A stretch of DNA of 64,000 nt, from positions 2,890-66,889 of the IMG/VR virus record IMGVR_UViG_3300048599_000416. The stretch is one strand, 5' to 3'. Shown here piece after piece: positions 34,101 through 59,412 of this stretch (its first letter is position 1; each line of letters opens with the position of its first letter). The notes beneath the pieces were generated by a model, which saw only the letters and a list, made by a program, of their open reading frames with translations, made no database searches and was not told where the DNA came from. The position numbers were made by a program, and so were the translations under genes. The stretch is from a virus. Taxonomy: Duplodnaviria; Caudoviricetes.

Positions 34101-37100
34101 TACATACGGAGTTGAGGTAACTCCACAGGCAATCGTTGATTTTATCGATAATAACCCAAAGAATAAAATAGAACCATCGAACGTCTATATGCGCGATTTG
34201 GATAAACGCTTTTCGGAAGTAGCAACAAGCATATCCGGCCATAAGGTAGGAGGAGTGGAAAGTCCGTCGGGAAAGCTATTTTTGTCGATGTTTGGAAAGC
34301 AGACTGCCCCTAAATCCCCTGAAGGGGACTTGGAATCTGCGACCTCACCCCAACCCCTCTCCCAAGGCGATTGGCAATCTGCGGAGGAAATATTGAATGA
34401 TCCGTTTGCGGATATGGCAGATAGGGTGAAGGCGGCAAATGAGTTGATCGCGAAATATGAGGAGAATTTTCCTCATGCAGTAAAAACGACAGTTTGTGCC
34501 ACGTCGGAAGAGTTTGTACAACAATTCGGAAAACAAGCTAACTTTGTATCGGAAGAGTTGAAACAAAAAAAGATAACTGGCGCTTATAACGAAGGCAATG
34601 TATTCATCCATTTGCCGGATGTGCTCGATACGCCGGAGCTGGAAAAGACATGGAAGCATGAACAGCAACACGCTGTAAATGCAGAAAAAGATTTGACACC
34701 ATTGTACGATGCGCTGGGAGACGGGGAAATGTCGAAGACAATACCCGGATACCGGAATATGAGCATCAATGAAATTGTTGATGAACATATAGCCTATAGC
34801 GCCGAAACATACAATCCGGATAAAAGTCGTGGATTGGTAGACGATTTAATCAAAGAAAATCTAAACATACTTACAAATGGAACAACAGATGGAATCGATC
34901 AGTATCCCGATGCGGGACGAGGAGGGGAACAACGTGGGCTGGTTGCGGTCGGCAGTGACACCGGAACAGAAGAAAGAAATAACGCGCCTGACCAACGAGG
35001 AGGGGATGACGCTGGACGAAGCGATGGACAAGGTGGTGCCGAAAAGAGCCAAGAACAAGGAGTAAAGAGCCAAGAGGCTACCTCTAACCCATCCCAAGAA
35101 GGGAAACAAACATCTACCCCTAAATCCCCTGAAGGGGACTTGGAATCTGAACCCACTGCCCAATTTAAGGCATCGGACATTAAAGAGGGGGAAGGAATAC
35201 CGCAATATGTGGATCGTGTAGTGCAGGAAAAGCAGATACACGACGAACTTCAACGCGTCAATACAGAACCTACAGAGGCACAAAAAGAAGCCGGAAACTA
35301 TCAGAAAGGACATATAACCGTGCAGGGAATGGACATTTCCATTGAAAACCCTGTGGGATCGGTGCGCCGTGGAGTGGACGAAGACGGGAAAGCATGGGAA
35401 AACACCATGCAGACCAGTTACGGATACTTTAAGCGCACGGAAGGAAAAGACGGCGACCATATCGATGTGTTTGTCGGTCCGGATGTTTCCAGTGAAAAAG
35501 TATTTGTGGTAGACCAGAACAACCCCACCACCGGCGCATTCGACGAAAGCAAGGTGATGTTAGGATTTGATACGCCGCAAGTTGCAAAAGAAGCCTACCT
35601 GTCGAACTACGAACCCGATTGGAAAGGATTTGGAGCTATTACAGAAGTATCGGTAGAAGACTTCAAAAAATGGTTGTATGACGGTGCCAAACAGCGGAAA
35701 CCGTTTAGCGAGTATGTAGATACACCGGAAGCGGTTCGTTTACGTACAGACAGAAGCGGAAATGAAATTGGAGATGGTGGCTGGAATGTGGAGCCGGAGA
35801 TTATGGATTTTAAAGAGTATCCACAGATTACAAGTAATGTAAACAAAAGCCAGACAACAGAAAGTACATATGTAACTTATACTAACAAAGACAATAGCAA
35901 ATCAATTACGGTACGCTTCTCGAACCATGAAAACAATGCCGTAAAATTTGGCGATCAGTTGAATGGTTATACAGCAACAGCCAATCAAATATTGTACAAA
36001 TTAGGACTTAAAACAAGAGATTTTATTCCTGAAAAATATTTATCAATTTGGGCAACGCAAGTAAAACGAAAAGATGTAGGTAATTATGAAATGGCAGATA
36101 AAACCATGCCAGAATTATATGCGCTTGGGAAAGATGCTGACCTGTCAGATTACAAAGGAAAGGTAGCTAAAAACAGCAATTGGCTAATTTTAGGAGACAA
36201 GGTTTCAGAACTAGACAAAACAACCAGAGACGCTTTTGGAAACAGCGTAAGACTTGGTAAATACGAATACCACGACATTACTCCAGAGGAATATGCCAAA
36301 CAAAATTCGGAAAGTAAAATTCGTTTTCGCAGAGAAGAACAAAGTGAAATAATACAAAATGCAAAACAATATGCAGATGTAGAAGACTTCATATCGGCAT
36401 ACAAAGATGCAGATTTCAGGGATGCACATTCATCTCCCGGATTTGATGACACTCCAAGTGAACAGAAAATAGAAGACGGAGGTGATTTTTCGTTAGTAGA
36501 AGTAGCTAATGGATTCCATAATCAACCAGACGACTATTTTGCTCCAAGAATAGGTGCAAGATATTACGGATATGACGATAAAGAAGGAATGCAAAGTTAT
36601 TATGCAATAAAGAAGGCTATTGACGAAATAAAATCAGGAAAGAAAAATGTAAAAATAACGGCTTACAGAGCTATACCGAAAGAAGTAGAACAAAAAAAAC
36701 TTATAGATAGAGATTGGATAACATTCTCACGTGAATATGCTGTATCACACGGAGAATATCGTTTTGGAGAAAAACAATACCGGATTATTAAGCAAAACGT
36801 ACCAGTTGAACATGTTTGGTGGGACGGTAACGACATAAACGAATGGGGTTACGACACAGGCCAAACAACTACATTTGGACGATCTGATTTAAAAACAATT
36901 TGGGAACAAGCACAGGCTCCAAAGTTCCGCATCATAGGCGAACGTGGTGCAGCCAGAATGGAAGATGCTGAAAATATCATCGATAATCTGAAAGTAGCAA
37001 AGGAGATGGAAGCAGCCGGAAAACAACCGAAAGAGATACGTCTTGCTACCGGATGGGAAAAAGGAATGGATGGATTGTGGCGGTATGAGGTGCCGGATGC

Positions 37101-40100
37101 CGAAATAGATGTAGATGTATTAAATGAACTGAAAAATAATAGTGAACTGGCAAATAAAAATGTAAATATCGACCTTGTTACTTACAGAAAACAAGAAAAC
37201 GGTTTGTATACATTAAGCCTTAAAAAGAAGGGGGCAACGAATACAAATGAATTTGCAGATTATAAGAATTTGTCTGTAAATGAATTAATCGGAATAATTG
37301 ACAATAAAGAAGTTTCAGATAAAATTTTGAATGGAGAAGGTAATGAATCTTTTATGGGTAAAAATTGGGATGAAGCAAAAGAAATCAAAACAAACTTTAC
37401 CACATTTATAACCGGAGGAGAACTGTTACCAAGAGTAATTCAAGATAAAGCCCTTTTCGAAGTATATCCTGAACTTAAAGATGTGGTAGTAGTGTTTGAT
37501 AAAGCCCAAGGATTAAACGCTTCTTATGAAACTGGAGACAATCAAATAATAATCAGAATAGGGGCGGTTTGGAAACAAACAAAATCAACCCTTATCCATG
37601 AAATCCAACACGCCATTCAGGATATTGAGGGATTTGCAAAGGGTGGATCAGCTGAGGCTATGAATGATTACAGCCTGAAAGAAAGCAAAAAAATAATTGA
37701 GGATAAATATTCCCATTTACCCAGTTACAAAACAGCAAAAGAAAATGGTACGCTGGATGAATGGGTAAAGAAGATGGTTAATGCCACTGGAGAAGGAATA
37801 ACGCCACTTGAAGCTTACCGCCGTCTTGCCGGAGAGGTAGAAGCCCGTAACGCATCAGCACGAATGCAGATGACGCCGGAAGAGCGGCGAAATACACTAC
37901 TGAGTGAAACGGCAGATGTGGCACCGGAGGATCAGATTGTATTGATGGATCAGATAGACAGGGCCAATTCAGAGATTGATGCTAAGGATTACGAAGCTAA
38001 ACTAAAAGAAATTAAAGACAAAGCCATTGCCGACGGTACGTTTATGAAAGCCCCGAACGGAAAAGATACCAATTTGAATGAGCGACAATGGTTGCAGGTA
38101 CGTACACCGGAGTTCAAGAAATGGTTTGGAGATTGGGAAAACGACCCTGAAAATGCATCAAAAGTGGTGGATAAAAATGGGGAGCCAATGGTGGTGTATC
38201 ATGGAACGGGAGATAAATTCTTCAAGTTTGATAAATCTAAATTAGGTTCGAGAGAAGATGCATTTTTCTTTACCTCAAACGAAAAAATGGCAAAAGATTA
38301 CGGCAAACCAATGTCGGTATTTCTATCTTCAAAAAGATTTATTGACTTAGATGAGGATTATAGAGATGTAAACGGAGTACAATATCATCCCGGAAACAAA
38401 GATTTCACAAAATATTTTGATGGTTACAGTACAGATAAGGATACTGATTACAATGAATATGCAGTCTACAATCCTAACCAAATTAAATCGGCCACGGCCA
38501 ACACCGGCGCATTTGATGAGGGGAATGCGGATATCCGTTTCAGGACGGCGGGTGAAAGGTTGAACAAGCAGGACAGAATATCGGCAATTGTTGATAGTAA
38601 ACCGCTGGAGATAACCGGAGAGGAGTACAAAGGCAATTATGAGTTGAACCGGAACAGTGCCAAATCGTTTATCAAAGATAACCTGAGAGGCGAATATGTC
38701 AACTCTGAAAGCGGTGATGTAATACAGATCAGAAAAGACGGCGCTCAAAAGATAACTTCGCACAGCATGACTAACGAAGATTATCTGAAAACAATTTCCG
38801 TTCTTCCGGAGCTGATAAAAAATGCCGTATACATAGATGAATTGCCCAATCTGAAGGATAAACCAAAATACACAGGATACCGGTATTATGTAAGCGGATT
38901 AAAAATAGGAGAGAAAGACTATACGGTGAAGTTGACTGTAGGAGTGGATGCGAGCGGATATAAACTGTATGATTGTTCGCTGACAAACATAGAAAAGGGT
39001 AAACTCATAAAAGAAGTTGGCGCTTTAACTACCACGTTACCCTCCAATGAGTCTACCCTTTCCGGGGTCAAAGATACGAAATTAATTCACCTTTTGCAAG
39101 AAAGTGATGCAAAATCTGAAAATAGTGATTCGGGTAATGGTAATGAAGTCAATAAAATACCGGTTAAACCTGAATACACTCCAGAAAAATCATTGGAGCA
39201 GTTTGTTAACGAGGTGGTAGATTATAATAAGAGCCAAGAGCCAAGAGCCAAGAGCCAAGAGATTGAAGACATCCGTTTTCGGTCGATGCCAACTCCTCCG
39301 GTATTTGCGGCCAATACTCCTGCAGGCGATGTTGCGCAGCAAGTGACAGCATTTGCACAGGAAACAAAAGAAATATTTAAGGATGCAGACGCACAAATGC
39401 AGAAAATACACCGTTTGCATACAATGTTTCTGGATCGTGCGCGGCCATTGGAGGAATACCAGCGTTTGATGGTTGAAAAAGGAGCATCGTTGAGTGATGC
39501 GAATAACGCTTATTACGATTTTATTGCCACAACATCATGGAGTACCAATCAGGTTGCAAAATTTACCGAAAGTAAAATAGAGCCACTTCAGGAACGATTG
39601 GCTACACTGGTAAAAAGTAAAAAGCTCGATACCCTTCCGATGTACAACTGGAATATGGCGAAGGATGATACCGGAAAAGTAATTGCAAATGGTAAAATAT
39701 CGAATTACGATCGGATCAGTCTCTATATTCAGGCAAAAGACATCCTGGAACAGATAGAGCAGAATGGAATGGGCCGCGGAGAAGAAGGATTTGCCAACGA
39801 TGTGAAAAGGCACGACGTGAAAGATGTTAATCCGGAATTGAAAATAACACTTCAGGACGGTACTGTTTTGAGTAAAGAGGAGTTTGAAAAGAAAGAAGGG
39901 ATAATCAGTATTACAAAAGATACTGTAAAGTATCGTCCCGCGAATTCAAATACAATCGAGAGCTTGCCGACACGTGAATATATTCGTCGTCAAAAAATTG
40001 AACCGGATCCGAAAAGTGTAGCTGCTATTGATGAGGAAAGTGTGCTCCGGTTAGCTGATGGTAAAGAGCTGACGTCTCACGAATACATACAGCAATATGT

Positions 40101-43100
40101 CAATGAGTTTGAAAATGCTGTTGGAGCCGATGAGGTGGCAAAAATATGGAGTGATGTGAATGCTGTCAACAAATATTCTCTTGATATGCAGTTGAAATAC
40201 GGACTTATTTCTCAAAGCACATATGATAGCTACAACATACCTGTTAGTCGTGAAGAATACCTGAACGATAAAAATCTGATCGGAAACATTAAAACAAACT
40301 TACTGGAGAAGGGAAATAAAACCATTAATGTGAATGATGAGGTACGGGATTTTATTGATATGAATAAACGTTTGGATTGGGCAAAAAGACGTTTGACCGA
40401 GCTTAAAACCAATAGCATCCCGGAAGCGGATTTGAAGAAAGAAATTGAAAACTTTCTTTCTAAACAAAAAGCTACTACCAATAAAACAGAGAAGTACGAT
40501 CCTGAAAAGAAAAGCTATTACATTGAGAACATCATCAAGATACGCAATTCTGAAATACAACATCTGGAGAAACAAATTATTGAAAAAGAAAATGAGTTTC
40601 CTCAGAAAATACGGTTATCGAACAGAACTTCGGAAGTGTCGCTGAATGATTATTTGAAAGAAATAGCCGGTTATCAAAGTGAGATCGGGAGAAAATATTA
40701 CGTGCCACAGCGCGGATGGCGTTCGCGCGACATGGATACGGAAGAGCATTATTACGAACGGTTATCGAGAAGTGAAGATTACAAAAATCCGTACAATGCG
40801 GCATTGGTAAAAGCAAAAGGCCGCCGGACACTGGCAGGTGATCCGCTGGCATACATGCAAAGTATAGGTGAAAGTACCATATCCTCCATTGCAAAAAACA
40901 AAACCAAACAGAAATTTTTGGAGTTTGCGTTGGAAAATTCAGACTTTGCCCGTACACACGATTTCTTCGCCATTAAAAAAGCCTATTACGTGGCTACCGG
41001 CAATTTGGATGAAAACGGATACATGACGTACGAACGGACCTACACGCGTCCGGATAAGTCGCTGTTTGATGCCGACAAGAAAACAAGTGAAGAGTTGGCC
41101 GCTTTGATGATGGAGAAAAGAGATGTTGCGATATCGCATCAAAATAAGGAGCTGTCGAATTCTGAATTTATAAAGAAATTGACGGATATTTCCGATCGCG
41201 AAAAAGCTCTGAAAAACAGCATCCATGTAAAGCATGAAGGATACGAAAGCACTACATTGCAACAGCGGACCAGTGAAGAAAAGAAGCAACACACCGTGGT
41301 GGCATTGAAAAACGGTATTGAATACGAAATACAGTTCTCCAAAAATTACACCGGCGAACGGGTTGCTAATATCCTGAATCGCGCATTCAGTTCGAATGAA
41401 GTAGGAAGAATGGGGCGGGGATGGCGCAAGGCAACCGGGTATATGTCGAGCATGATGACGCAATACAATCCTGGATTTGCGGCGGCAAATGCCGTGAGGG
41501 ATATGCAGCTGGCGCTGGTAAGCAACGGAGTGGAATTCGGAATGCAATACAACATGCAATTTTTGGCCAATTACGCCAAATGTCAGCGCGCGGTATGGCA
41601 ATACGTGGTAAATGATCAGTTTGATGGAGATAACCGTTATTCGCCGGGCAAATACGGCAAATACATGGAAGAGTTCTTTGAAGATGGCGCCGCAACCGGA
41701 TGGAGTTTTTTGAAAGATGTAGAACAATTACGTAAAGACATGAAACTTGCTATCGATCCGACAATTAAACAAACCATCATAAAAGGAAAATACGGCGTAG
41801 TGAATTTTGGCGGGATCCGGCAAATGTTCGGATTATTGGGAGAAGGTAGTGAGTTATCCACCCGATTTGCCGAATATGTGACCAGTAGAGAGATGAAAAA
41901 CCCTGATGGTAGTAACAAGTACACCCGGGAACAAGCAACGCAACACGCCAAGGATGTGACGGTAAACTTCGACCGGAAAGGAACCAGCAGAACCATATCG
42001 TTGTTCTTCTCTTTCTTCAATGCTTCGGTACAGGGAACCAATAAACTGTTGCGAATGATGCGCGACAGACGCGTGGCTCAAAAGCTGGCCGGAGTCTTTG
42101 CAACATACGCAGCATACGGGTTCCTGATGGGATTGATGGACGATGATGATGAAAAAGACAGACGCGGGTTTACAGACTGGGAAAAAATGATCAATCTTAC
42201 ATTCGGTAATTTCAAAATACCATTGCCGCAAGGATTTTTAAGAGGATTTTACGGGTCGTTCTTCCAGTTGGGAAAAGCAGTCTCCGGAAAATCACCGTGG
42301 AATGAATCGTTATTAACAGCTTCGCAATTCTTTGCCGGAGAGGTGGTGCCTGAGCAGATCATATTCTGGTCGAATGGGTTGATGTATGACGACAAAACCG
42401 GTACTGTGATATTGAACCCATTGTCGGAAAAAACGTGGAAACGAACATTCAGAGGTGTAGCTCCTACAGCATTGCAGCCTGTTGTGGATATGGCCATGAA
42501 CACCAATTTTATGGGGGGAAATATTTATAGGACTGAATTCACCAACAAACAAATGGATACACAAGCCGAACGGGTAATGGGTAAGAAAAATACCAGCCCA
42601 TTGGCGCAAGATATTAGTAACTGGCTATGGGATTTGGGGGGCGGAGATACCTCTCCCAATAACAAGAGTTTGATGCGGAAAGATATGAACGGAACGGTAA
42701 ACAGCGCGTTTAATATCAATCCGGCGGTAATAGAATTTTTGGTAAGAGGATACTTTGCCGGTACCGGTAAATTTGTTCTCGATACCTACCAAACCATTTA
42801 TCAGATGGTAACTCCGGGGCAACATCTGGATGTAAGTAATGTTGCAGTGGCCAATGTATTCTACAAGCAATATAAAGAGCAGGACGACTTCAAAAAAAAC
42901 TATTACGACTTGCAGAATAAACTCGATTATCAGTTATCGCAATGGAGCGGACTATCTCCGGAAATGAAGCTGAAGCAGCGGGAAAGTTATCAAAAAGCGG
43001 TAGATAGTAACTGGAAGGATCCTGACAATGCAGCCATGATATATAAATGGAGAACTGAAACCAGCGCGTTGATGAAAAATATTGGAACAACGCAAAAGTA

Positions 43101-43248
43101 TTTGTCGAAGATAGATGAGGAAGAGGCATCCGGAAAATTGACCCCGGAACAGGCAGAAGCCGCAAAAGTGCAGCGCGGATTCGATTATGGTGCCGCTGTG
43201 AAACTGTTGAGTAACAGGTTAAGTGAATGGCAAAAATTCAACAAGTAG
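31114..43248 (+). CDS. Giant polyvalent virion/ejection protein (4044 aa)
   Basis: Recognisable modules: zincin KHEQQH; polyvalent inorganic-pyrophosphatase-like (EAGNYQKGHI...KDGDHIDVFVG); LPD23-like (ATGWEKGMDGLWRYE) with IHEIQH; ART-PolyVal-like (FKKWFGDW...VVYHGT); LPD3-like; C-terminal LPD38-like (VNFDRKG...FFNASVQG). Confidence 0.85.
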   Translation: MDNINNVLQQYAATAANPKYKGDWNVINSKFPELKGFDTKVLQQYAATAANPTYKGDWNVINSKFPELFPKNMNGKGVLAPTVNTNLPGMTVPVQQKSTQQIVKEHPSWGQNNNNAPDEEWTNTVDPTLGQQVVQGAKDFGHAAYTGVNQLGNNIWNAVNEGAIKVAQLEGKLSDNPTWQDHVQNVIKGSRENQKSMSDWSQTHQPADNIAGTLGGVVPYLAKGVMDITMPETALFTTGALGVLGIGEGMAAYDARKQAEGVNPNNYSAIDELKKAALGLTYGLAYSAPLGKYGKAMSKVVPESVRKGIADRFLGSPEGQQVMNGIYEKLVSQVPSNGKILAHNLVKSVVGGTGAMAAMQGIKDLGDVTMTNKKYSLADIQDQLASSVEQGLIFSALAPLSAHANIANRKQRWNAQKEATFTFGNDGKPIEVVFDRKGNPQGYDLFGKAVKLSPEQQANTISVPSDVLSSGIEQYKKSGTLPTDYDRQVYSGRLTNALKNISDANGNVAIPSDEGTGVMAIVGKGQDGNYQGIDHSGQPVQVDANTPLKQVHVSDVYNALMSKYDEVNGRKKTGSEQPLLNNEPTPAPEVTPEQQAVNDIHNSSNPDMNAIVHANIAGTDAPVRIVKGNIATKEDGTIDRGASDEAVYYQDADGKTKIAPIDNVTELASNVPVDAAIGQIQQKMAAANLASQLQVGDTGAMPDGTTSTIEQINPDGTFQLEVEMPDGSVRRAIAQSEEMAGLGFTTQTSNESIPTPVAESSSPKSPEGDLQAATSPQPLSQGEGQTEMPTPQSPEGDLKSVASPASIPTDEKGKRLFEQAPVEATIGAFKEAYDTPEKLSGAVDAVINRLSTQMKKAGKPKLTGDPDVDMQNELAAKQQIKDIQTKLDYWKSVNDALSAEAMQGADSHEAVWQNTADNSTDPNEIANAYNQAKEAGGFDAVEPWQQQLVGMKVHPESWNRFGDRNKAGDIKAWLSPKKEALTPDNSIDTIAQALSDTYGVEVTPQAIVDFIDNNPKNKIEPSNVYMRDLDKRFSEVATSISGHKVGGVESPSGKLFLSMFGKQTAPKSPEGDLESATSPQPLSQGDWQSAEEILNDPFADMADRVKAANELIAKYEENFPHAVKTTVCATSEEFVQQFGKQANFVSEELKQKKITGAYNEGNVFIHLPDVLDTPELEKTWKHEQQHAVNAEKDLTPLYDALGDGEMSKTIPGYRNMSINEIVDEHIAYSAETYNPDKSRGLVDDLIKENLNILTNGTTDGIDQYPDAGRGGEQRGLVAVGSDTGTEERNNAPDQRGGDDAGRSDGQGGAEKSQEQGVKSQEATSNPSQEGKQTSTPKSPEGDLESEPTAQFKASDIKEGEGIPQYVDRVVQEKQIHDELQRVNTEPTEAQKEAGNYQKGHITVQGMDISIENPVGSVRRGVDEDGKAWENTMQTSYGYFKRTEGKDGDHIDVFVGPDVSSEKVFVVDQNNPTTGAFDESKVMLGFDTPQVAKEAYLSNYEPDWKGFGAITEVSVEDFKKWLYDGAKQRKPFSEYVDTPEAVRLRTDRSGNEIGDGGWNVEPEIMDFKEYPQITSNVNKSQTTESTYVTYTNKDNSKSITVRFSNHENNAVKFGDQLNGYTATANQILYKLGLKTRDFIPEKYLSIWATQVKRKDVGNYEMADKTMPELYALGKDADLSDYKGKVAKNSNWLILGDKVSELDKTTRDAFGNSVRLGKYEYHDITPEEYAKQNSESKIRFRREEQSEIIQNAKQYADVEDFISAYKDADFRDAHSSPGFDDTPSEQKIEDGGDFSLVEVANGFHNQPDDYFAPRIGARYYGYDDKEGMQSYYAIKKAIDEIKSGKKNVKITAYRAIPKEVEQKKLIDRDWITFSREYAVSHGEYRFGEKQYRIIKQNVPVEHVWWDGNDINEWGYDTGQTTTFGRSDLKTIWEQAQAPKFRIIGERGAARMEDAENIIDNLKVAKEMEAAGKQPKEIRLATGWEKGMDGLWRYEVPDAEIDVDVLNELKNNSELANKNVNIDLVTYRKQENGLYTLSLKKKGATNTNEFADYKNLSVNELIGIIDNKEVSDKILNGEGNESFMGKNWDEAKEIKTNFTTFITGGELLPRVIQDKALFEVYPELKDVVVVFDKAQGLNASYETGDNQIIIRIGAVWKQTKSTLIHEIQHAIQDIEGFAKGGSAEAMNDYSLKESKKIIEDKYSHLPSYKTAKENGTLDEWVKKMVNATGEGITPLEAYRRLAGEVEARNASARMQMTPEERRNTLLSETADVAPEDQIVLMDQIDRANSEIDAKDYEAKLKEIKDKAIADGTFMKAPNGKDTNLNERQWLQVRTPEFKKWFGDWENDPENASKVVDKNGEPMVVYHGTGDKFFKFDKSKLGSREDAFFFTSNEKMAKDYGKPMSVFLSSKRFIDLDEDYRDVNGVQYHPGNKDFTKYFDGYSTDKDTDYNEYAVYNPNQIKSATANTGAFDEGNADIRFRTAGERLNKQDRISAIVDSKPLEITGEEYKGNYELNRNSAKSFIKDNLRGEYVNSESGDVIQIRKDGAQKITSHSMTNEDYLKTISVLPELIKNAVYIDELPNLKDKPKYTGYRYYVSGLKIGEKDYTVKLTVGVDASGYKLYDCSLTNIEKGKLIKEVGALTTTLPSNESTLSGVKDTKLIHLLQESDAKSENSDSGNGNEVNKIPVKPEYTPEKSLEQFVNEVVDYNKSQEPRAKSQEIEDIRFRSMPTPPVFAANTPAGDVAQQVTAFAQETKEIFKDADAQMQKIHRLHTMFLDRARPLEEYQRLMVEKGASLSDANNAYYDFIATTSWSTNQVAKFTESKIEPLQERLATLVKSKKLDTLPMYNWNMAKDDTGKVIANGKISNYDRISLYIQAKDILEQIEQNGMGRGEEGFANDVKRHDVKDVNPELKITLQDGTVLSKEEFEKKEGIISITKDTVKYRPANSNTIESLPTREYIRRQKIEPDPKSVAAIDEESVLRLADGKELTSHEYIQQYVNEFENAVGADEVAKIWSDVNAVNKYSLDMQLKYGLISQSTYDSYNIPVSREEYLNDKNLIGNIKTNLLEKGNKTINVNDEVRDFIDMNKRLDWAKRRLTELKTNSIPEADLKKEIENFLSKQKATTNKTEKYDPEKKSYYIENIIKIRNSEIQHLEKQIIEKENEFPQKIRLSNRTSEVSLNDYLKEIAGYQSEIGRKYYVPQRGWRSRDMDTEEHYYERLSRSEDYKNPYNAALVKAKGRRTLAGDPLAYMQSIGESTISSIAKNKTKQKFLEFALENSDFARTHDFFAIKKAYYVATGNLDENGYMTYERTYTRPDKSLFDADKKTSEELAALMMEKRDVAISHQNKELSNSEFIKKLTDISDREKALKNSIHVKHEGYESTTLQQRTSEEKKQHTVVALKNGIEYEIQFSKNYTGERVANILNRAFSSNEVGRMGRGWRKATGYMSSMMTQYNPGFAAANAVRDMQLALVSNGVEFGMQYNMQFLANYAKCQRAVWQYVVNDQFDGDNRYSPGKYGKYMEEFFEDGAATGWSFLKDVEQLRKDMKLAIDPTIKQTIIKGKYGVVNFGGIRQMFGLLGEGSELSTRFAEYVTSREMKNPDGSNKYTREQATQHAKDVTVNFDRKGTSRTISLFFSFFNASVQGTNKLLRMMRDRRVAQKLAGVFATYAAYGFLMGLMDDDDEKDRRGFTDWEKMINLTFGNFKIPLPQGFLRGFYGSFFQLGKAVSGKSPWNESLLTASQFFAGEVVPEQIIFWSNGLMYDDKTGTVILNPLSEKTWKRTFRGVAPTALQPVVDMAMNTNFMGGNIYRTEFTNKQMDTQAERVMGKKNTSPLAQDISNWLWDLGGGDTSPNNKSLMRKDMNGTVNSAFNINPAVIEFLVRGYFAGTGKFVLDTYQTIYQMVTPGQHLDVSNVAVANVFYKQYKEQDDFKKNYYDLQNKLDYQLSQWSGLSPEMKLKQRESYQKAVDSNWKDPDNAAMIYKWRTETSALMKNIGTTQKYLSKIDEEEASGKLTPEQAEAAKVQRGFDYGAAVKLLSNRLSEWQKFNK
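31132..31317 (+). repeat. Tandem intragenic repeat (84-bp core, 102-bp period)
   Basis: VLQQYAATAANPxYKGDWNVINSKFPEL encoded twice. Confidence 0.9.
33398..33507 (+). repeat. Cluster of in-frame palindromic elements (A-B-A)
   Basis: 26-bp element at 33398 and 33482 flanking a CCCCTC-TCCCAAGGT-GAGGGG hairpin at 33445-33465. Confidence 0.9.
34307..34370 (+). repeat. In-frame palindromic elements (A plus truncated B)
   Basis: 26-bp element followed by gcgacctcaccccaacccctctcccaagg. Confidence 0.88.
35044..35142 (+). repeat. AAGAGCC-derived units plus 26-bp palindromic element
   Basis: aagagccaaga at 35044 and 35065; element A at 35117-35142. Confidence 0.85.
39229..39261 (+). repeat. Perfect heptamer tandem repeat (AAGAGCC)x4 plus AAGAG inside the CDS
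   Basis: Read directly from the sequence. Confidence 0.92.
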
Positions 43249-43320: not shown

Positions 43321-44259
43321 TTATTTAGAAAACAATGATTTTAATGTTGAAATTCTAAATTGTAACGATGGGTGAGAATCATATAGAGAAATTGTATTAG
43401 GATATAAATTACCAAATACAGAATTGTAAAAATTAAAAATTTTACTGAGACCTTGAATGTGTGATTCTGGATTTTTTCCTGTCCATTTCAAAAATAAGCA
43501 AGCCACAATGTCGGCTTCCATTTCTTGTTCTCTACTATATTTGTATTTATGCAAAATAGTATTATCTGTAAATCCGTTATCTATAGCTGAAATTGTATTG
43601 TTTGTAAGTTGATTAAAAGAATTTCCAACCTCTTCGGTATATGATCCATTTTTAGCGACAGCAATTTGGCTTCCCACAATAGCAACTCCTGCAAATGCTG
43701 CGGTTATTGCTGCTGCTGTATTATCTTTTTTTTCTTGTTTTTTATAGTTAAAATAACTGACTTCTGTGTGTTTTAACATTACATGGGCTATTTCATGAGC
43801 TATAACTCCAGTTATTTCATCCGTATTTAATAAATCCATCAATGAGTTTGAAAGATATATTTCTCCATTTGGAAGGGCATAAGCATTTAGATCATTTGAG
43901 GAGTAAAATGCAATATTTTTAAGGTAATTGGCATATGTAGAACCGCATAAATTTTTCATTATACTTAATGCGGTAGTATTTGTGGTGATTGAATGTAGAG
44001 AAAGATTAAATGTTTCGATTCCGAAATTCTTTTTGCATTTACGGGCAAATCTTGAATTGTCATTCTCATAATTATTTAACGCTGCGTTTTTAATGATGAT
44101 ATACTGCCAAAAAACAGAATAATCATCAGAATACTCTGGCAAATCAGAATAAGAATTAGTTGTATTGATAATATGATCTTTGCTTACATTATAAGTTGTA
44201 GTGCAGCTAAATAATATTATTGCAATACTTGACAACCAAATTAATCTTATTTTTCTCAT
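43321..44259 (-). CDS. M48-family zinc metallopeptidase lipoprotein (moron)
   Basis: LNAYALPNGEIY, VIAHEIAH, YSREQEMEAD, HPS motifs; signal MRKIRLIWLSSIAIILFSC; AT-rich. Confidence 0.88.
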   Translation of the reverse strand: MRKIRLIWLSSIAIILFSCTTTYNVSKDHIINTTNSYSDLPEYSDDYSVFWQYIIIKNAALNNYENDNSRFARKCKKNFGIETFNLSLHSITTNTTALSIMKNLCGSTYANYLKNIAFYSSNDLNAYALPNGEIYLSNSLMDLLNTDEITGVIAHEIAHVMLKHTEVSYFNYKKQEKKDNTAAAITAAFAGVAIVGSQIAVAKNGSYTEEVGNSFNQLTNNTISAIDNGFTDNTILHKYKYSREQEMEADIVACLFLKWTGKNPESHIQGLSKIFNFYNSVFGNLYPNTISLYDSHPSLQFRISTLKSLFSK

Positions 44260-44286
44260 AGTAAATGATTTATTTTTGTTTGTCCG

Positions 44287-44345
44287 CAAAAGTACAAAAA
44301 TTTTCCGCTACCTATTGCATAATGCAAAAAATCACATTATCTTTG
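44287..44345. promoter_or_regulatory. Divergent-gene TAnnTTTG promoter motifs
   Basis: TACTTTTG on - (44287-44294) and TATCTTTG on + (44338-44345). Confidence 0.55.
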
Positions 44346-45736: not shown

Positions 45737-46237
45737 TTAGTCATCTTTTTTAGTCATGTTTAGTCGTCTGATACCACCACCTGCCAATCCTATCACAAAA
45801 GCCGTGAGGTGAAGCAGAAAAGCGGAGTGAGGATTGATGGCGCTTACGATGAGGGAAATAAACAGACACACTTCCCATGTGATGAGTTGCTTTTTGGTGA
45901 TGCGAATTTCATTGGTGTTGGCCATTACCAGATAGAGGCCGATCATGGCATAAACCATGGCACTGGCGCCCACGGTAGGCTTGGCGTAATGCACGGCAAA
46001 CGAAGCTGCAAAAGCGGCGCTGAGGATAAACACAGCCAGTTTGTAAGCGTTGATTTTCAGTTCGAGAATGCGGAATAACGAAAAGAAAGCAATGCTGTTG
46101 AGGATGAGGTGCACGAGGTTAGCATGTTGAAAATTATAGGTGAGATGTTTCCAAATTGGAAAATACCCAACAAAGCCCAGGTTAAGCCCAAAAAGGCAAA
46201 AAACAATCAGAAATGAAAGAAGAAAAAGATATTTCAT
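45737..46237 (-). CDS. Rhomboid-family intramembrane serine protease (minimal)
   Basis: FQHANLVHLILN, GASA catalytic Ser motif, late His (LLHLTAF); about six TM segments. Confidence 0.82.
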   Translation of the reverse strand: MKYLFLLSFLIVFCLFGLNLGFVGYFPIWKHLTYNFQHANLVHLILNSIAFFSLFRILELKINAYKLAVFILSAAFAASFAVHYAKPTVGASAMVYAMIGLYLVMANTNEIRITKKQLITWEVCLFISLIVSAINPHSAFLLHLTAFVIGLAGGGIRRLNMTKKDD

Positions 46238-46245
46238 GAGTACTA

Positions 46246-46458
46246 TTATAAGTATTTACTGCACAATTTGTTATTTAGTTTAATGATTAAGAACATAAAC
46301 AATAGATGTAGAGGTATGATAAAAATTTGTTGCCAGTAAATATGTTTTGATGTTAAAAAGATACCAATGCCACATGAAATACAAAGTGCCATTATTTGTA
46401 ATAGTGTTGTTACGATTGCGATTTTTTCAATATCAAGCCAAACTGATTTATACTTCAT
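46246..46458 (-). CDS. Two-TM small membrane protein
   Basis: 70 aa, coupled between 46455 and the rhomboid gene. Confidence 0.5.
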   Translation of the reverse strand: MKYKSVWLDIEKIAIVTTLLQIMALCISCGIGIFLTSKHIYWQQIFIIPLHLLFMFLIIKLNNKLCSKYL

Positions 46459-46763
46459 TGTTTTTTGATTTTTAGTATTCTCCGGATGCTTCTTTTGGAG
46501 TATAAACGTTCGGGTTGGTTATTGTAAGTGTAGAGGATAGCTTTTTGGACATCCTGAAATTGAAGAAACTTTTCGGTAAACAATTTCTTTACCTGCCGTT
46601 CAAAATCGTTTTTAAGATCCGTTTTACGCCGGTAAACAATGTTACTGATCCGTTTGTACGAGACGTTGCATTGCCATTTCATTTGGGCAATATCATCTAT
46701 TGTTTTGTTGGTTTCTCTCCACTCCCGATGAATTTGAGAGATTGTGATAGAATTGTCTTTCAT
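46455..46763 (-). CDS. Putative DNA-binding regulator
   Basis: Basic 102 aa with two HTH-like ends (SYKRISNIVY; SKRSIRRIL). Confidence 0.45.
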   Translation of the reverse strand: MKDNSITISQIHREWRETNKTIDDIAQMKWQCNVSYKRISNIVYRRKTDLKNDFERQVKKLFTEKFLQFQDVQKAILYTYNNQPERLYSKRSIRRILKIKKQ

Positions 46764-46824
46764 ACGCGTAAAAACATCAAATGATTAATAAACGCAACAA
46801 ATGTAGTAATAAATCAACATAAAG

Positions 46825-46839
46825 TGTCATCGTGGGCAA
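46825..46839 (+). promoter_or_regulatory. Candidate late regulatory motif TGTCATCGTGGGCAA, copy 2
   Basis: Identical to 23186-23200. Confidence 0.5.
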
Positions 46840-46913
46840 ATAAAATGAGTGTAAAGTTGTTTCTTTGAGTTCATTTTAATGCGAAAAGCAAAATCAACAA
46901 ACTCATTTTTATT

Positions 46914-47666
46914 ATGGAAGATGAAGAAATGAAAACAGGTCGTGATGCAATCGTAGATGATTGGAAAGCCAAGAATCCGGATGCAGAAGGCGAACCCACT
47001 GATGAACAGTTGTGGCAACACGTAGCCGATCGTCATCAGATAATGACCGATCAACACAATGAACTCTCCGGCAGATACGATGCTTTGAACGGATCCAACG
47101 CAAAGTTGGCCGAACTTGTCAAAGAAAATCCGCAGTTTGCACAATTCTTCCAGCATATTTTAGCCGGTAAGTCGCCCATGTACGCATGGGGCACCGCATT
47201 TGGTGAAATGCCGATGGGACTGACAGAGGACCAAATGGCAGAACACGAAGAAGGATACAAGCAATATGCCTCCGATCAGAAAACCCGCACCGACAAAGCC
47301 GCCGAAATTGAAACAAACTTCAAAGACTACTTCAAGAATCTGGATCAGTATAAAACCGATAACAACCTCACCGATGACGAAGTACAGCGCATTGACGATA
47401 CCATTATGAGTATGGTTGAGGCAATGTCAGTAGGCAAAATCCCTATGGAGTTGATAGACGCTATCTGGAAAGGCGCCGACGACAATATTGACGCGGCCAC
47501 CCAAGCAGCAGAGCTTGCAGGCCGTAATGCCGCCATTGAAGAAGGGAAAACCAAGCAGATCAACAAAACCGAATTGCCGAACATGGCCGGAGGTAATGGT
47601 GGTGTGAAGAGAGCAAAACCTGTGATTGAAAAAAGGATAGCTAAAAGAGCATCTTTTCCTCAGTAA
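46914..47666 (+). CDS. Putative scaffolding protein
   Basis: Acidic, helical 250 aa with basic C-terminus, immediately upstream of the capsid-like gene. Confidence 0.55.
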   Translation: MEDEEMKTGRDAIVDDWKAKNPDAEGEPTDEQLWQHVADRHQIMTDQHNELSGRYDALNGSNAKLAELVKENPQFAQFFQHILAGKSPMYAWGTAFGEMPMGLTEDQMAEHEEGYKQYASDQKTRTDKAAEIETNFKDYFKNLDQYKTDNNLTDDEVQRIDDTIMSMVEAMSVGKIPMELIDAIWKGADDNIDAATQAAELAGRNAAIEEGKTKQINKTELPNMAGGNGGVKRAKPVIEKRIAKRASFPQ

Positions 47667-47696
47667 TTAAATAAGTGAAATCAAAACAGTTGAATT

Positions 47697-49010
47697 ATGA
47701 AAAAGTTGTTTTTTAAATTGAAAGGAAGCGGTTTGCTAATGTTCGCATTACTGCTTTTATGTGCTGTGTTTGGCATTACCGGTGCAGAGGCGATGACCGC
47801 TGATATAACCGGAGTTCCGGAGGATACCCCTCTGACTCATCAAGAAATCAATGAGGATACTAATTTGCTCGAAATTGATTACGGCAAAGAAGCGATTGAC
47901 ATTGGTAGGGATGTTTTCTTGCTCACTACCATGACGGATGAAATTGGGAACCGGCATACATGTACCAATGTAGAAACCGGTGTTTTTGAATATGGAGAGC
48001 AAGATGGTGAAGATACAGTAGTGGATCAGGTTGCAGGAGCAAATCTTGTAGGCGGTAATTTGCCGAATACATTCAAGCTGGCAAACCCCTCTAACTGGAA
48101 AAAAGGCGACACCTTAATTGTTCCGAGTGTAGTTTCAACAGATGGTAAACCATTGTTTTTACGTATTGAATCATCTACCAGTACAACGGTTGCATGCAAG
48201 GTGATGAATCCAATTGTTACAGGTGCTGTCGAATCGTTCAATACCATTCCGGCTAATGCTTCTGTAATTAAGTTAGGAAAGGCAATGGACGAATTGACTG
48301 GAAAGGTTGACAGTAAATTATTGTTGCCAAGCCCTCATACCAATTATTGTCAAACCTTCATGGAGACAATTATTGCATCGCATCGCCAGCTTAATGTCCG
48401 CAAAAAAGTACAGATTCCATTTTCGGTATATCTGGAACAAAAAATGCGCGATTACAAACAAAAACGCGAATTGGCGCGCCTAATTGGTGTAAAATCACTC
48501 AGATATGACGCTGACAATCGTGAAATTTATACCTCTGACGGAGTATTCCACATGGCAAAAAACACCTTTGGAATGACAGCCTGGAACAATGATAACTACA
48601 CCGCAATGTGTCGTGATATTTTTGAAACAGGTTATGCCAATGGCTCAGGATCGAAAATACTGTTGTGCGGTGCCTCATTTATGGCTGGATTAACACATGT
48701 TGAAGCATACAGTAAAGTATTCCAGTCGGCAGAAACAGAAGCCGTATTTGGTGTTAAGTGTAAAGCAATTGATACCGGTTTTGGTATTCTGTATCCAAAA
48801 TATCACCGATTATTGACAGGTGCATACAGCAATAAAGCCATCGCGCTTGATATTCCTTATGTACGTATTGATACATTACAGGGTGAAGAGTTCCAAACCT
48901 CTCCGTTGACTGATAATGACGATCAACGCGTAAAAGGGGTTAGTATCTGGGAATCGAGTTGTGTTGTGTTGGAGAATGAAATGTCGCACTGTGTAGTTAC
49001 CGGTGCATAA
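47697..49010 (+). CDS. Putative major capsid protein with N-terminal hydrophobic leader
   Basis: 437 aa after the scaffold-like gene; NYCQTF...KMRDYKQKRELARLIG resembles SU10/DUF5309-type capsids; followed by a strong hairpin. Confidence 0.68.
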   Translation: MKKLFFKLKGSGLLMFALLLLCAVFGITGAEAMTADITGVPEDTPLTHQEINEDTNLLEIDYGKEAIDIGRDVFLLTTMTDEIGNRHTCTNVETGVFEYGEQDGEDTVVDQVAGANLVGGNLPNTFKLANPSNWKKGDTLIVPSVVSTDGKPLFLRIESSTSTTVACKVMNPIVTGAVESFNTIPANASVIKLGKAMDELTGKVDSKLLLPSPHTNYCQTFMETIIASHRQLNVRKKVQIPFSVYLEQKMRDYKQKRELARLIGVKSLRYDADNREIYTSDGVFHMAKNTFGMTAWNNDNYTAMCRDIFETGYANGSGSKILLCGASFMAGLTHVEAYSKVFQSAETEAVFGVKCKAIDTGFGILYPKYHRLLTGAYSNKAIALDIPYVRIDTLQGEEFQTSPLTDNDDQRVKGVSIWESSCVVLENEMSHCVVTGA

Positions 49011-54341: not shown

Positions 54342-56351
54342 ATGGCTAAACATTTAATAAAAAAGATAGAGATACCGGCAGGTACAGACATATTTATTCT
54401 GGATTTAGAGGCCGAATCAGTTGCTAGACAACAGGCTGATGAAGCGTTACAGTCAGGTAAAGAAAATGTAGGTGTAGCTGCGGGACTGGTCGCAACCGAA
54501 GCAACTGCTCGACAAACTGCTGATAATACTCTTGCGCAGACTGTAAGCGATCTATCATCGGCATTAACGGTAGTGCAGAACTGGAAGTCGGCAATGACGG
54601 ATGCTGATTCTGATAGCGTAATCAATACGCTGACCGAACTTCTTGACTTAGCCAAGAATGTGCCGGAAGGTGCTGATTTGGCCGCACTGCTTGCCGAAAA
54701 AGTGAGCAAGTCTGACATCGTTAATAATCTTACAAGCGTATTGACAAATGTTCCTTTGTCCGCCTATCAGGGCAATGTGCTGAAAGGGCTGATTGACACG
54801 CTAACGACTAATCTGTCGAATCATACAGGAGACACTGCGATTCATATTACGGCAGAAGAGAGAACCTCGTGGAATGCGAAACAAGCGGCATTAAATTTTA
54901 CACCTGAAAATTCAGCAAATAAAAGCATTCCTTCCGGATATGCCGCTCTTGATGCAAATGGAAAGGTGCCGGAAGCTCAACTACCGGCTTCCGCCTTGGG
55001 GGTTACAAAAACGCAGATTATTGCAGCTTTAGGATATGTTCCTGAAGATGAAGCAAAAAAATATGCACCCGGAGGCTATCCGGGTCTTGATATAAATCAA
55101 AAAATATCACTTGCCAATATACCTGATGGCATACTTGAGCAGTATTATGCCTATGGAGTGACCAAGCAATTTAACGAAGAAACATATACGCTTGATCGAA
55201 TCGGCAATCTAAGCCTTCATCAATCGCTTCCAATTCAGAGCAAGATGAAGGGGTGTCTGCTAGATGAATACGGAAATGTTATTGAGTATCTTCCTCCGGA
55301 TTCGTGGGTTGGGCAGACTCTTGATGGCTCAAAAGGGCAGGTGATGGTAGAAATACCAGAGTATTACTGCAAGTTCACAACGACGGATACCTCTATGACA
55401 ATGATGATTTCTGAACTTCCTTTACCCGGTTATACGCGGAACAAAAAGAGATACATATCTGCATACGAGGCGTCAATCAATAGAGGATCTGGAGTTCTTA
55501 GCTCCGTTGTTAATGGTTCTGCGAATTACAGGGGAGGAGACAATACGAGTGCATGGGATGGTACTTATAGGAGCTTGCTGGGAATGCCGGTTACAAATAT
55601 GTCACGCACTGAATTTAGAAACGCAGCACGGCTTAGAGGGTCTACACAGGAGAATTCTTGCGCATGGAACTGCCTTGATTATTCGTTATATAAGGATATT
55701 TGTTGGCTCTTTTACATAGAGTACTCAACGCTGAATAGTCAGCTTCCTTTTTCTTCAAAAATCAACGGATATTCTTATGGTGGATTGGGTGACGGAGTTA
55801 CCACTATGGTGGATTGGGGAACGTACAATAATTACAATCCTATTGTGCCTTGTGGGGCTACGAATTTTGTTGGCGCTACCTCCGGGGAGGTAGCATGTCA
55901 GGTTGGCAATACAACTCAATATGTCAAGGCAAATAGGTACAGAGGTATTGAAAATCCATTTGGACACGTATGGAAATGGACTGACGGTGTTAATATTCAG
56001 GTGAGTGGTGGCGTTGCAAAAGCCTATATATCTGAGACGCCTGCTACTTATTCTGATTCTCTTTATGAAGGTTATACAAATGTAGGAACGATAGCCAGTA
56101 CAGAAGGCTATGTTAAAAGAATTCTCGATAACGCCAAAGGGTGTATATTGCCAAAAGAGGTAGGTGGTAGCAGTTCGAGCTATTGGTGTGACTATCATTG
56201 GGGAAATACTGCCCCTGATGGGCTTAGAGGCCTCTTGGTCGGTGGTGGTGCGGATGATGGCGTGGCTGCGGGGCTCGCTTGCTCGAAGTCGAATGATGCG
56301 CCTTCGGTTGCGGGTGCGCTTGTCGGCTCTCGCCTTTGCTTTATACCGTAA
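54342..56351 (+). CDS. DGR target: tail fibre/adhesin with C-terminal CLec-like variable domain
   Basis: YRGIENPFGHVWKWTDG and terminal GSRLCFIP; the 3' end is the VR. Confidence 0.88.
   Translation: MAKHLIKKIEIPAGTDIFILDLEAESVARQQADEALQSGKENVGVAAGLVATEATARQTADNTLAQTVSDLSSALTVVQNWKSAMTDADSDSVINTLTELLDLAKNVPEGADLAALLAEKVSKSDIVNNLTSVLTNVPLSAYQGNVLKGLIDTLTTNLSNHTGDTAIHITAEERTSWNAKQAALNFTPENSANKSIPSGYAALDANGKVPEAQLPASALGVTKTQIIAALGYVPEDEAKKYAPGGYPGLDINQKISLANIPDGILEQYYAYGVTKQFNEETYTLDRIGNLSLHQSLPIQSKMKGCLLDEYGNVIEYLPPDSWVGQTLDGSKGQVMVEIPEYYCKFTTTDTSMTMMISELPLPGYTRNKKRYISAYEASINRGSGVLSSVVNGSANYRGGDNTSAWDGTYRSLLGMPVTNMSRTEFRNAARLRGSTQENSCAWNCLDYSLYKDICWLFYIEYSTLNSQLPFSSKINGYSYGGLGDGVTTMVDWGTYNNYNPIVPCGATNFVGATSGEVACQVGNTTQYVKANRYRGIENPFGHVWKWTDGVNIQVSGGVAKAYISETPATYSDSLYEGYTNVGTIASTEGYVKRILDNAKGCILPKEVGGSSSSYWCDYHWGNTAPDGLRGLLVGGGADDGVAAGLACSKSNDAPSVAGALVGSRLCFIP
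56238..56345 (+). repeat. DGR variable repeat (VR)
   Basis: 108 bp aligned to TR without gaps; 21 mismatches, 20 at TR adenines. Confidence 0.95.
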
Positions 56352-56398
56352 AGCGATAAGCGAAGCACGCGGCAAAATATACAGGTTGGTTGCTATAC

Positions 56399-56506
56399 GT
56401 CAGTGGTAATGCGAATAATGGCGTGAATGCAGGGCTCACTTACTCGAATTCGAATAATGCGCCTTCGGATGCGGATGCGAATATCGGCTCTCACCTATGC
56501 TTAAAA
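56399..56506 (+). ncRNA. DGR template repeat (TR)
   Basis: AAT-rich non-coding copy of VR lying between the target gene and RT. Confidence 0.95.
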
Positions 56507-56599
56507 ATAGAGCAACGACCTTGCCACTTGGCAAAAAATATCATCAATAAAAGGAGTTGGTAGGCATTAGCCGAAAGCCCCGGACATTAAAGCAAAGCA

Positions 56600-57577
56600 A
56601 TGAAGCGTTACGGAAATCTGTACGAACAAATAATATCAATAGAAAATCTGCAATTGGCTGACGAAAAGGCCAGAAAAGGAAAATTGAGATCGTACGGAGT
56701 AATGCGCCATGATGCAAATAGAGAGCAAAATATTATCAATTTGCATGAGCAACTTAAAAACAAGACTTTCAGAACATCCAAATACGAAACGTTCACCATC
56801 TTCGAACCGAAAGAACGATTAATATTTCGTTTGCCTTATTATCCTGACCGTATCGTGCATCATGCTGTGATGAATATTCTGGAGCCTATTTGGGTAAAAA
56901 CATTCACGACAGACACCTATGCATGTGTAAAACATAGAGGCATTCACGGGGCAATGGTAAAGGTAAAAGAAGCTTTGAAGGATATTGACAATACGCAGTA
57001 CTGCCTGAAGCTTGACATAAAAAAGTATTACCCGTCTATAGACCATGATATACTCAAGCAAATAGTTAGAAAGAAGATTAAATGCAATGACACGTTGCAA
57101 TTGCTCGATAGAGTCATTGATAGTGCCGAGGGAGTGCCCATAGGCAACTATTTGAGTCAGTATTTTGCGAACCTTTACTTAACCTATTTTGACCATTATA
57201 TCAAGGAACAGCTTAAGATAAAGTATTATTTTCGCTATGCTGATGACATGGTGTTTCTACACAAGGATAAAGCTTTTCTTCACGGGCTTCTGGTAAATAT
57301 TAACCAGTATTTAACCGAGAATCTCAACCTGACAATCAAAGAAAATTATCAGGTGTTCCCGGTAGATGCCAGAGGAATAGATTACGTTGGATTTGTATTT
57401 TATCATAGCCATACTGCAATAAGAAAGAACATAAAAAAGAACTTTTGCAAAGCGGTGGCACGTCTGAATAAACGTTCAAATATATCAGATAAGGAATACA
57501 ATCAGCGTCTTTGCAGTTGGTTTGGATGGGCAAAATATAGCAATTCAAAACATTTACTTAAAACGATATTGAGATGA
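56600..57577 (+). CDS. DGR reverse transcriptase
   Basis: KERLI...DRIVHHA, LKLDIKKYYPSI, GVPIGNYLSQYFAN, YFRYADD, GIDYVG; adjacent to TR. Confidence 0.96.
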   Translation: MKRYGNLYEQIISIENLQLADEKARKGKLRSYGVMRHDANREQNIINLHEQLKNKTFRTSKYETFTIFEPKERLIFRLPYYPDRIVHHAVMNILEPIWVKTFTTDTYACVKHRGIHGAMVKVKEALKDIDNTQYCLKLDIKKYYPSIDHDILKQIVRKKIKCNDTLQLLDRVIDSAEGVPIGNYLSQYFANLYLTYFDHYIKEQLKIKYYFRYADDMVFLHKDKAFLHGLLVNINQYLTENLNLTIKENYQVFPVDARGIDYVGFVFYHSHTAIRKNIKKNFCKAVARLNKRSNISDKEYNQRLCSWFGWAKYSNSKHLLKTILR

Positions 57578-58793: not shown

Positions 58794-58794
58794 C

Positions 58795-59322: not shown

Positions 59323-59412
59323 ACATACAATTATAAGAGCATTCCTTATTCTAAAAATCATCTTAAAATTAGAATTACGAGATTCTATGAGAATCTCTCA
59401 AAATTTACAAGT

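Follow-up and report, generated by a model that had tools for sequence, protein, structure and literature searches.

A minimal rhomboid protease gene beside the gene of a leader-bearing HK97-fold capsid protein in a phage with a Bacteroidales-type host

Gene Composition of the Locus

Analysis of a 64,000-nucleotide stretch of the virus record IMGVR_UViG_3300048599_000416 (bases 2890–66889 of the 66,889-base record, which is estimated to be 96% complete; hereafter, the window) showed the presence of a gene for a small rhomboid intramembrane serine protease, located on the strand opposite to the genes of a scaffold-like protein and a major capsid protein (MCP) that begins with a leader resembling a signal peptide. 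The window belongs to a temperate, podovirus-like, gut-type phage with a Bacteroidales-type host. The following features, with protein lengths in amino acids (aa), make up the locus:

45737–46237, minus strand: mini-rhomboid intramembrane serine protease, 166 aa, 6 predicted helices
46246–46458, minus strand: 70-aa protein with two predicted hydrophobic helices, from the list of open reading frames (ORFs) and a hydrophobicity scan
46455–46763, minus strand: 102-aa basic soluble protein, first gene of the rhomboid operon
46763–45737, minus strand: the leftward operon as a whole (102-aa protein, 70-aa two-helix protein, 166-aa rhomboid)
46914–47666, plus strand: scaffold-like protein, 250 aa, acidic, directly ahead of the MCP gene
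47697–49010, plus strand: MCP, 437 aa, matching PF17236 (E = 1e-22)
47697–47792, plus strand: MCP leader, residues 1–32, basic, then hydrophobic, then a small-residue stretch
47793–49010, plus strand: predicted mature part of the MCP (PF17236, 9in6, Foldseek and sliding-window identities)

The initial annotation had described a minimal rhomboid encoded divergently from a scaffold/capsid operon, and both parts of this description were confirmed, the rhomboid gene lying at 45737–46237 on the minus strand and the operon at 46914–49010 on the plus strand. The rhomboid matches PF01694 with E = 7e-16 (59.1 bits at a cut-off of 22.6). In the alignment of 28 homologues with 34–48% identity, residues H38, H43, G90, S92, H143 and G150 are invariant, and N47 is conserved in at least 90%. 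Ser92 and His143 are the predicted catalytic pair, and H38, H43 and N47 form the predicted motif H-x4-H-x3-N of transmembrane helix (TM) 2; in a comparison of the homologue profile with GlpG of E. coli, the rhomboid residues fall on the Ser, His and Asn blocks. The catalytic serine motif G-x-S-x of TM4, the histidine of TM6 and the TM2 motif are kept in all 12 phage rhomboids retrieved. The AlphaFold2 (AF2) model (pLDDT 86.8, pTM 0.84) has a six-helix core, and GlpG structures occupy ranks 1–34 of its Foldseek search, with TM-scores of ~0.64–0.76. Loop L1 is short, and its Trp-Arg motif, which is typical of the rhomboid family and not catalytic, is absent, W29 being followed by Lys (Thr in most homologues). 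The loop charges fit the usual N-in/C-in topology with a periplasm-side active site, as read from the sequence. Judged by its motifs and its model, the rhomboid appears to be catalytically intact and conserved.

The product of 47697–49010 scores 81 bits against PF17236 (cut-off 24.1), and the profile search of PDB identified the capsid protein of Vibrio phage VP1 (9in6, E = 1.9e-24). Its AF2 model (pLDDT 87.6) has the HK97 fold; the best Foldseek match is again the VP1 capsid 9in6 (E = 2.6e-24), followed by the capsids of crAss001, SU10 and HK97. The gene context includes the scaffold gene upstream, as well as portal and terminase genes within the window. The scaffold-like protein matches phrog_22323 (E = 5e-16), and all related loci contain a gene for a protein of 235–281 aa at the scaffold position. 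Profile searches and structure prediction thus agree with the original assignment of this product, an HK97-fold MCP of the SU10/VP1 type.

Leader of the Major Capsid Protein

By inspection, the leader contains four lysines within residues 2–9, a hydrophobic stretch at residues 12–26 and a small-residue stretch, including Ala30 and Ala32, which ends with Ala-Glu-Ala directly before Met33 (Met-Thr-Ala-Asp). It has the layout of a Sec-type signal peptide, with n-, h- and c-regions and small residues at −3 and −1, again by inspection. In the AF2 model of the MCP, the leader helix (residues 11–25) is detached from the fold, and residues 28–46 are disordered.

An exhaustive HMMER search with the MCP retrieved 340 relatives, and the leader was surveyed in the best 150 of the 340, with 19–47% identity. 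Most of these ~150 homologues, and nearly all those of full length, open with a short basic stretch followed by ~20 hydrophobic residues, and the pattern [A/G/S/T]-x-[A/S] ahead of the Met33 position is kept in most close leader homologues. P0002, a homologue with 90% identity, shares the start and the reading frame, and its leader is likewise hydrophobic, though this part has diverged visibly more than the remainder of the protein. In both the window and the related locus L087, the sequence upstream of the first ATG of the MCP gene is A-rich. The L087 codon matching Met33 is GTT; Met33 is therefore not an alternative start, and this codon, together with the leader character conserved in ~150 homologues, rules out a start-codon artefact or an internal start at this position. 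The earlier claim that the capsid protein begins with a basic and hydrophobic leader is accordingly retained, and the leader is translated and occurs throughout the family. A lipoprotein signal (lipobox) was ruled out, as the residue before the conserved Cys22 is Leu or Val, both in the window and in the majority of its close relatives.

In two viral contigs, L046 and L047, nearly identical to L042, the MCP leader is replaced by an Arg/Gly-rich N-terminus, which may result from a frameshift or an assembly error.

Co-occurrence of the Rhomboid and the Leader

Rhomboid loci with a visible MCP gene were found in the window and in L001, L002, L003, L005, L087, L089, L090, L092, L094 and L095; those outside the window originate from the Bacteroides phages BKO1-TP3 and BF1-TP2, a contig of an assembled genome, a soil metagenome contig, four further contigs, the IMG/VR locus L005 and the locus of P0004. 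A twelfth locus, L088, is truncated by the end of its contig and was left out. In all 11 loci, the rhomboid gene is located 0.9–1.5 kb upstream of the gene of a leader-bearing MCP, on the divergent strand. The MCPs of these loci share only 24–45% identity. Every rhomboid homologue with enough flanking DNA is located upstream of a scaffold gene and the gene of a leader-bearing MCP, with divergent transcription.

The converse was analysed in 60 IMG/VR loci with MCP homologues, nearly all of which are leader-bearing. Both the phage-rhomboid hidden Markov model (HMM) and an ORF scan for multi-helix proteins up to 10 kb from the MCP gene detected a rhomboid in only one of these loci, L005. The HMM scores three rhomboids new to it at 30–100 bits, which makes the negative results credible. 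A tblastn search of the phage collection with the rhomboid gave no match, though Pfam detects rhomboids in the same phages; a search for related loci with the MCP alone as query was likewise negative. Co-occurrence is one-way: the rhomboid implies a leader-bearing MCP, and the leader does not imply the rhomboid.

The architecture of the leader tends to go with the presence of the rhomboid. Leaders associated with a rhomboid have a single hydrophobic segment with the small-residue stretch right after it, whereas most rhomboid-free leaders contain an added linker and a second, Gly/Ala-rich hydrophobic segment. The uncharged span, a crude measure, has medians of ~22 and ~38 residues, respectively (Mann–Whitney p = 0.002, with non-independent rows and partial separation). 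The same holds within the clade of the window, where P0004 combines a one-helix leader with a rhomboid, and P0003 has a two-segment leader and no rhomboid at the site.

Where the rhomboid is missing, the scaffold and MCP genes directly face the terminase gene; the module is the same except for the absent pair of small-protein and rhomboid genes. The 102-aa protein of the window is similar to a 135-aa protein encoded just ahead of the rhomboid in L087 (BLASTP E = 1.5e-8); elsewhere (L001, L003, L089, L094 and L095), this position is filled by a phrog_27246 protein. In L001, L002, L003, L005, L089, L094 and L095, the gene preceding the rhomboid encodes a soluble phrog_27246 protein of 122–160 aa. 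Since phrog_27246 is missing from the rhomboid-free loci, except that L056 and L057 gave weak HMM matches, the phrog_27246 and rhomboid genes look like a co-inserted pair. Judged by its position, the phrog_27246 protein could be the small terminase subunit. The order phrog_27246 small protein, rhomboid, large terminase was found in six relatives, and the rhomboid is therefore considered part of the morphogenesis module rather than of the lysogeny or lysis genes. The 70-aa gene has no counterpart at its position in the relatives examined; its product gave no match in Pfam and a weak match in PHROG.

Contigs of a leaderless subclade, L093 and L096, have no rhomboid at the equivalent site. These contigs represent a different kind of element, since the scaffold/terminase arrangement is absent and housekeeping genes adjoin. 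In L093, L096 and L097, genes of leaderless PF17236 capsid proteins are accompanied by a short portal gene, and scaffold and terminase genes are missing from the vicinity; a gene for a protein of 72–89 aa precedes the capsid gene in L093 and L096; the three may be reduced or domesticated capsid-forming elements.

Mosaic Joint at the Leader/Body Boundary

Comparison of individual proteins with those of the window showed two patterns of identity. In L003, L087, L089 and L090, identity is 39–42% for the rhomboid, 29–38% for the scaffold and 42–55% for the leader (residues 1–40), but 25–26% for the MCP body. In L092 and L005, the respective values are 27–28%, 24–26% and 21–31%, and the MCP body is 45% identical in L092 and 39% identical in L005. 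Sliding windows placed the switch at residues 35–45 (~47800–47831), with L087 being 60–62% identical before it and 10–24% after. Taken as a whole, the leader of the window is 60% identical to that of L087, while the MCP bodies of the two share only 25%; over the four loci of this group, leader identity reaches 42–60%. Across the 11 loci, leader identity is correlated with rhomboid identity (Mantel r = 0.68, p = 0.0002), with scaffold identity (r = 0.56) and with identity of the MCP body (r = 0.27).

These identities point to a recombination joint at the leader/body boundary, with the leader (residues 1–45), scaffold and rhomboid closest to one group and the MCP body closest to another. Because leader identity follows that of the rhomboid and scaffold more than that of the MCP body, the leader is regarded as a module travelling with these two genes, and the position of the joint is as expected for a separable targeting element or pro-peptide. 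This mosaic joint between leader and MCP body is new here. Inheritance of the leader together with the protease, and not with the rest of the shell protein, hints at an undescribed membrane step in the building of tailed-phage heads.

Prohead Proteases and Other Candidate Proteases

Genes of conventional prohead proteases had not been recognized in the window by the initial annotation, and none were found here. Searches of the 96%-complete record for families S78, ClpP and S49 (PF04586, PF00574 and PF01343) were negative at E ≤ 0.1, Pfam and PHROG scans of the window genes revealed no conventional prohead protease, and S77 (PF03420) was likewise not found in a search that lacked a positive control. 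The M48 peptidase of the window (43321–44289) is an unlikely leader protease; since the gene annotations of the retrieved related loci include no M48 domain, its role may be accessory rather than that of a head protease. Rhomboids of the hosts are near-universal, PF01694 matching all 14 of 14 control genomes, including that of B. thetaiotaomicron.

Genomic Context

Other genes and systems of the window include the following:

1–6904, minus strand: type I restriction-modification system (subunits R, S and M), located where the viral record begins on the left
23245–25275: P22-like portal protein
29188–29766, plus strand: hydrophobic virion protein, 192 aa, in the portal-side gene block
31114–43248, plus strand: polyvalent protein of 4044 aa with pyrophosphatase, ADP-ribosyltransferase and several LPD domains
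43321–44289, minus strand: M48 zinc (lipoprotein) peptidase carrying a signal of the lipoprotein type; its gene separates those of the polyvalent protein and the anti-repressor
58332–60247, plus strand: lysis cassette, ~12 kb from the rhomboid
60354–62444: large terminase

An anti-repressor of the Ant type is encoded in the window, and an integrase gene adjoins tRNA-Met. Rightward from 46914, the scaffold-like protein and the MCP are followed by tail genes. The restriction-modification system could be phage cargo or a host flank. The closest isolated phages infect Bacteroides, and some rhomboid homologues originate from assemblies labelled Tannerella. Counterparts of the polyvalent protein in relatives are 3300–4660 aa long and similarly located.

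The lysis cassette comprises genes for a holin-like protein with three helices, an endolysin of family GH108 that also contains PG_binding_3, and a spanin-like protein of 193 aa with an N-terminal anchor helix. Membership of the rhomboid in the lysis cassette was ruled out, as the holin, endolysin and anchor protein are encoded at 58.3–60.2 kb. The 29188–29766 protein has an uncharged N-terminus and a Gly/Ala/Pro-rich hydrophobic helix followed by four arginines; because of this TatA-like N-out/C-in pattern, it is an alternative candidate substrate of the rhomboid.

A diversity-generating retroelement is located at 54342–57577. Its reverse transcriptase is encoded at 56600–57577, the variable repeat (56238–56341) is situated at the 3′ end of the tail-fibre gene 54342–56351, and the template repeat lies at 56399–56502; 18 of the 19 template-to-variable mismatches fall at template adenines.

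Possible Role of the Rhomboid in Capsid Maturation

We propose, with a probability of about 0.4, that the leader targets the MCP to the membrane and is removed there, and that in this lineage the phage rhomboid performs or assists the removal. The leader would bring newly made MCP to the cytoplasmic membrane and would be removed at that membrane, in the short-leader lineage by or with the help of the mini-rhomboid. The cut would lie within the leader helix or directly behind it, at its periplasm-facing end, where the active site of rhomboids is situated, and the MCP freed in this way would enter scaffold-guided assembly. Membrane insertion, cleavage, the cleavage site and the rhomboid as the enzyme are all inferred. 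A broader version, in which a tailed-phage lineage routes an HK97-fold MCP via the membrane, a rhomboid replaces the prohead protease, and the leader and protease form a graftable module, is put forward more tentatively.

A number of observations weigh against this proposal. Four lysines precede the leader helix and an acidic stretch follows it, so the predicted orientation is N-in/C-out. A leader inserted in this way is predicted to export the capsid body rather than tether it inside the cytoplasm, and the suggestion in the initial annotation that procapsids assemble tethered to the inner membrane was not upheld, as the capsid body would lie outside the cytoplasm. The orientation given by the positive-inside prediction is also opposite to that of N-out/C-in rhomboid substrates; the substrates that define rhomboid specificity are N-out/C-in, and for one type II substrate a looping-back model has been offered as the rationale (PMC2941825). 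The Ala-x-Ala before Met33 equally suits signal peptidase I, and the host signal peptidase is an equal candidate for the cleavage, as the initial annotation had already pointed out. Among viral records with leader-bearing MCPs, PF01694 was found in one of 30, that of L005, and in none of the seven that are at least 90% complete, and the unfiltered HMM found no rhomboid in the five complete terminal-repeat genomes (best score 7 bits). The expected co-occurrence of rhomboid and leader thus stood in one direction, with all 11 rhomboid loci leader-bearing, and failed in the other. Strict pairing of leader and rhomboid is ruled out by the 29 of 30 viral records that are leader-bearing and rhomboid-free; since the leader is far more widespread, it does not depend on the phage rhomboid, nor is the latter a general leader protease. 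On the MCP tree, the rhomboid state requires two changes, and the contrast of P0004 (with rhomboid) and P0003 (without) in the clade of the window is a third, which implies only ~3 independent gain or loss events. Shared history of the leader, scaffold and rhomboid could be explained by linkage alone, because the three are contiguous.

Residues Leu20–Phe25 of the leader, with Ala23 at P1 and Phe25 at P2′, fit the rhomboid substrate rule, which calls for a small residue at P1 and hydrophobic residues at P4 (large) and P2′, close to the outer helix end (PMC2941825). The rule is loose, and chance fits can occur in any hydrophobic helix; matching of recognition motifs was therefore set aside as evidence. 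At the place of Leu20–Phe25, the pattern Cys-x-x-[Phe/Leu]-Gly is kept in seven of the 11 rhomboid-associated leaders.

Removal of the leader throughout the family by host signal peptidase I or a host rhomboid, with the phage rhomboid as an accessory, is considered unlikely as the full explanation. The accessory role would be quality control, that is, clearing MCPs stuck in the membrane or the cut-off leader peptides, which may number tens of thousands in a burst. Such a division of labour agrees with the rhomboid-free state of most leader-bearing phages, complete genomes included, with the small-x-small pattern before Met33, which fits signal peptidase I and is kept in most close leader homologues, with the near-universal host rhomboids (14/14 genomes), and with the published quality-control role of bacterial rhomboids (PMC7232013). 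However, signal peptidase cuts on the periplasm side, so that export of the capsid body would be as problematic as before, and neither the shorter one-helix leader of rhomboid-bearing phages nor the tracking of the rhomboid by the leader sequence is accounted for by host enzymes. Action of the rhomboid on another membrane protein, its tie to the leader being genetic linkage within a mobile block of head genes, appears quite unlikely. Several more membrane proteins are encoded in the window, and the 70-aa two-helix protein, the holin, the lysis anchor protein, the 29188–29766 protein, which has the rhomboid-preferred N-out/C-in pattern, or a host protein could be the substrate; linkage of the contiguous rhomboid, scaffold and leader could, moreover, give a shared history. 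Yet the rhomboid is always beside the gene of a leader-bearing MCP (11/11) and is missing from the leaderless relatives L093 and L096; the lysis genes are 12 kb distant, the 70-aa gene is without counterpart at that position in the relatives, and the leader/body boundary coincides exactly with the recombination joint.

It is very unlikely that the leader serves assembly as a hydrophobic element, hidden inside the procapsid or held by the scaffold and either retained or otherwise removed, to which the rhomboid is irrelevant. Export of the capsid body would serve no use, the leader shares history with the scaffold too (Mantel r = 0.56), and the second Gly/Ala-rich segment of many relatives could pack as an N-arm. 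Such a function is nevertheless hard to reconcile with the layout of basic, hydrophobic and small residues, which is what the targeting machinery of the cell recognizes, with the detached AF2 helix and the disordered linker 28–46, and with the solved relative VP1, which forms a capsid without such a leader. Membrane targeting of the MCP with removal of the leader by or with the phage rhomboid appears to be the most likely reading, and the overall interpretation given in the initial annotation is partly supported.

Assembly of tailed-phage capsids is viewed as cytoplasmic, and precursor cleavage is ascribed to soluble proteases inside the prohead. Our literature search found no paper tying a phage rhomboid to capsid assembly, and the words 'phage' and 'viral' are absent from a 2025 review of the rhomboid superfamily. 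If the proposal is true, an HK97 precursor targeted to the membrane and cut by an intramembrane protease would represent a new route of virus morphogenesis, and bacterial-type rhomboids, which have few known substrates, would gain a clear and abundant natural one. Even with the rhomboid as an accessory, the presence of a signal-like leader throughout a family of HK97 capsid proteins still needs explaining.

Comparison with Known Systems

The major coat protein of phage M13 is made as procoat with a cleavable signal-type leader, which is removed by the host leader peptidase, and its route to assembly leads through the inner membrane. The MCP of the window is similar in being a major coat protein of a phage with a signal-type leader. 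However, the M13 coat protein is a 50-residue helix assembled by extrusion at the membrane, while here the product is a 400-residue shell protein of the HK97 fold, encoded by a DNA-packaging tailed phage with an intramembrane protease gene of its own alongside. The prohead proteases of HK97 (S78) and T4 (S77) are soluble, are packaged in the prohead and cut N-terminal propeptides of the MCP after assembly. Shared with these systems are an N-terminal piece outside the mature fold and a phage protease gene among the head genes, but the candidate enzyme of the window is an integral membrane protease. Rhombosortase, a cellular enzyme of the rhomboid family, is paired with the C-terminal sorting helix GlyGly-CTERM, and here too a dedicated rhomboid-family enzyme may go with a recognizable substrate helix, the differences being the N-terminal position of the helix and the viral nature of the pair.

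Some MCPs of Porphyromonas gingivalis phages contain predicted signal peptides, removal of which by the prohead protease is assumed (PMC10367356). They resemble the MCP of the window as Bacteroidota phage MCPs with predicted signal peptides and were compared on that feature alone; a rhomboid is nowhere mentioned for those MCPs (PMC10367356).

The rhomboid AarA of Providencia stuartii removes a short N-terminal extension of TatA, making TatA functional (PMC2941825, PMC3712462). Likeness to this system would lie in the bacterial type of the rhomboid, in the N-terminal extension on a single-helix protein and in the fit of Leu20–Phe25 of the window to the loose substrate rule. In contrast, TatA is N-out/C-in with positive charges after the helix, and the charge pattern of the MCP leader is the opposite; furthermore, the candidate substrate in the window is a capsid protein, whereas the candidate enzyme, encoded by the phage, is 166 aa long and lacks the Arg of the L1 Trp-Arg motif.

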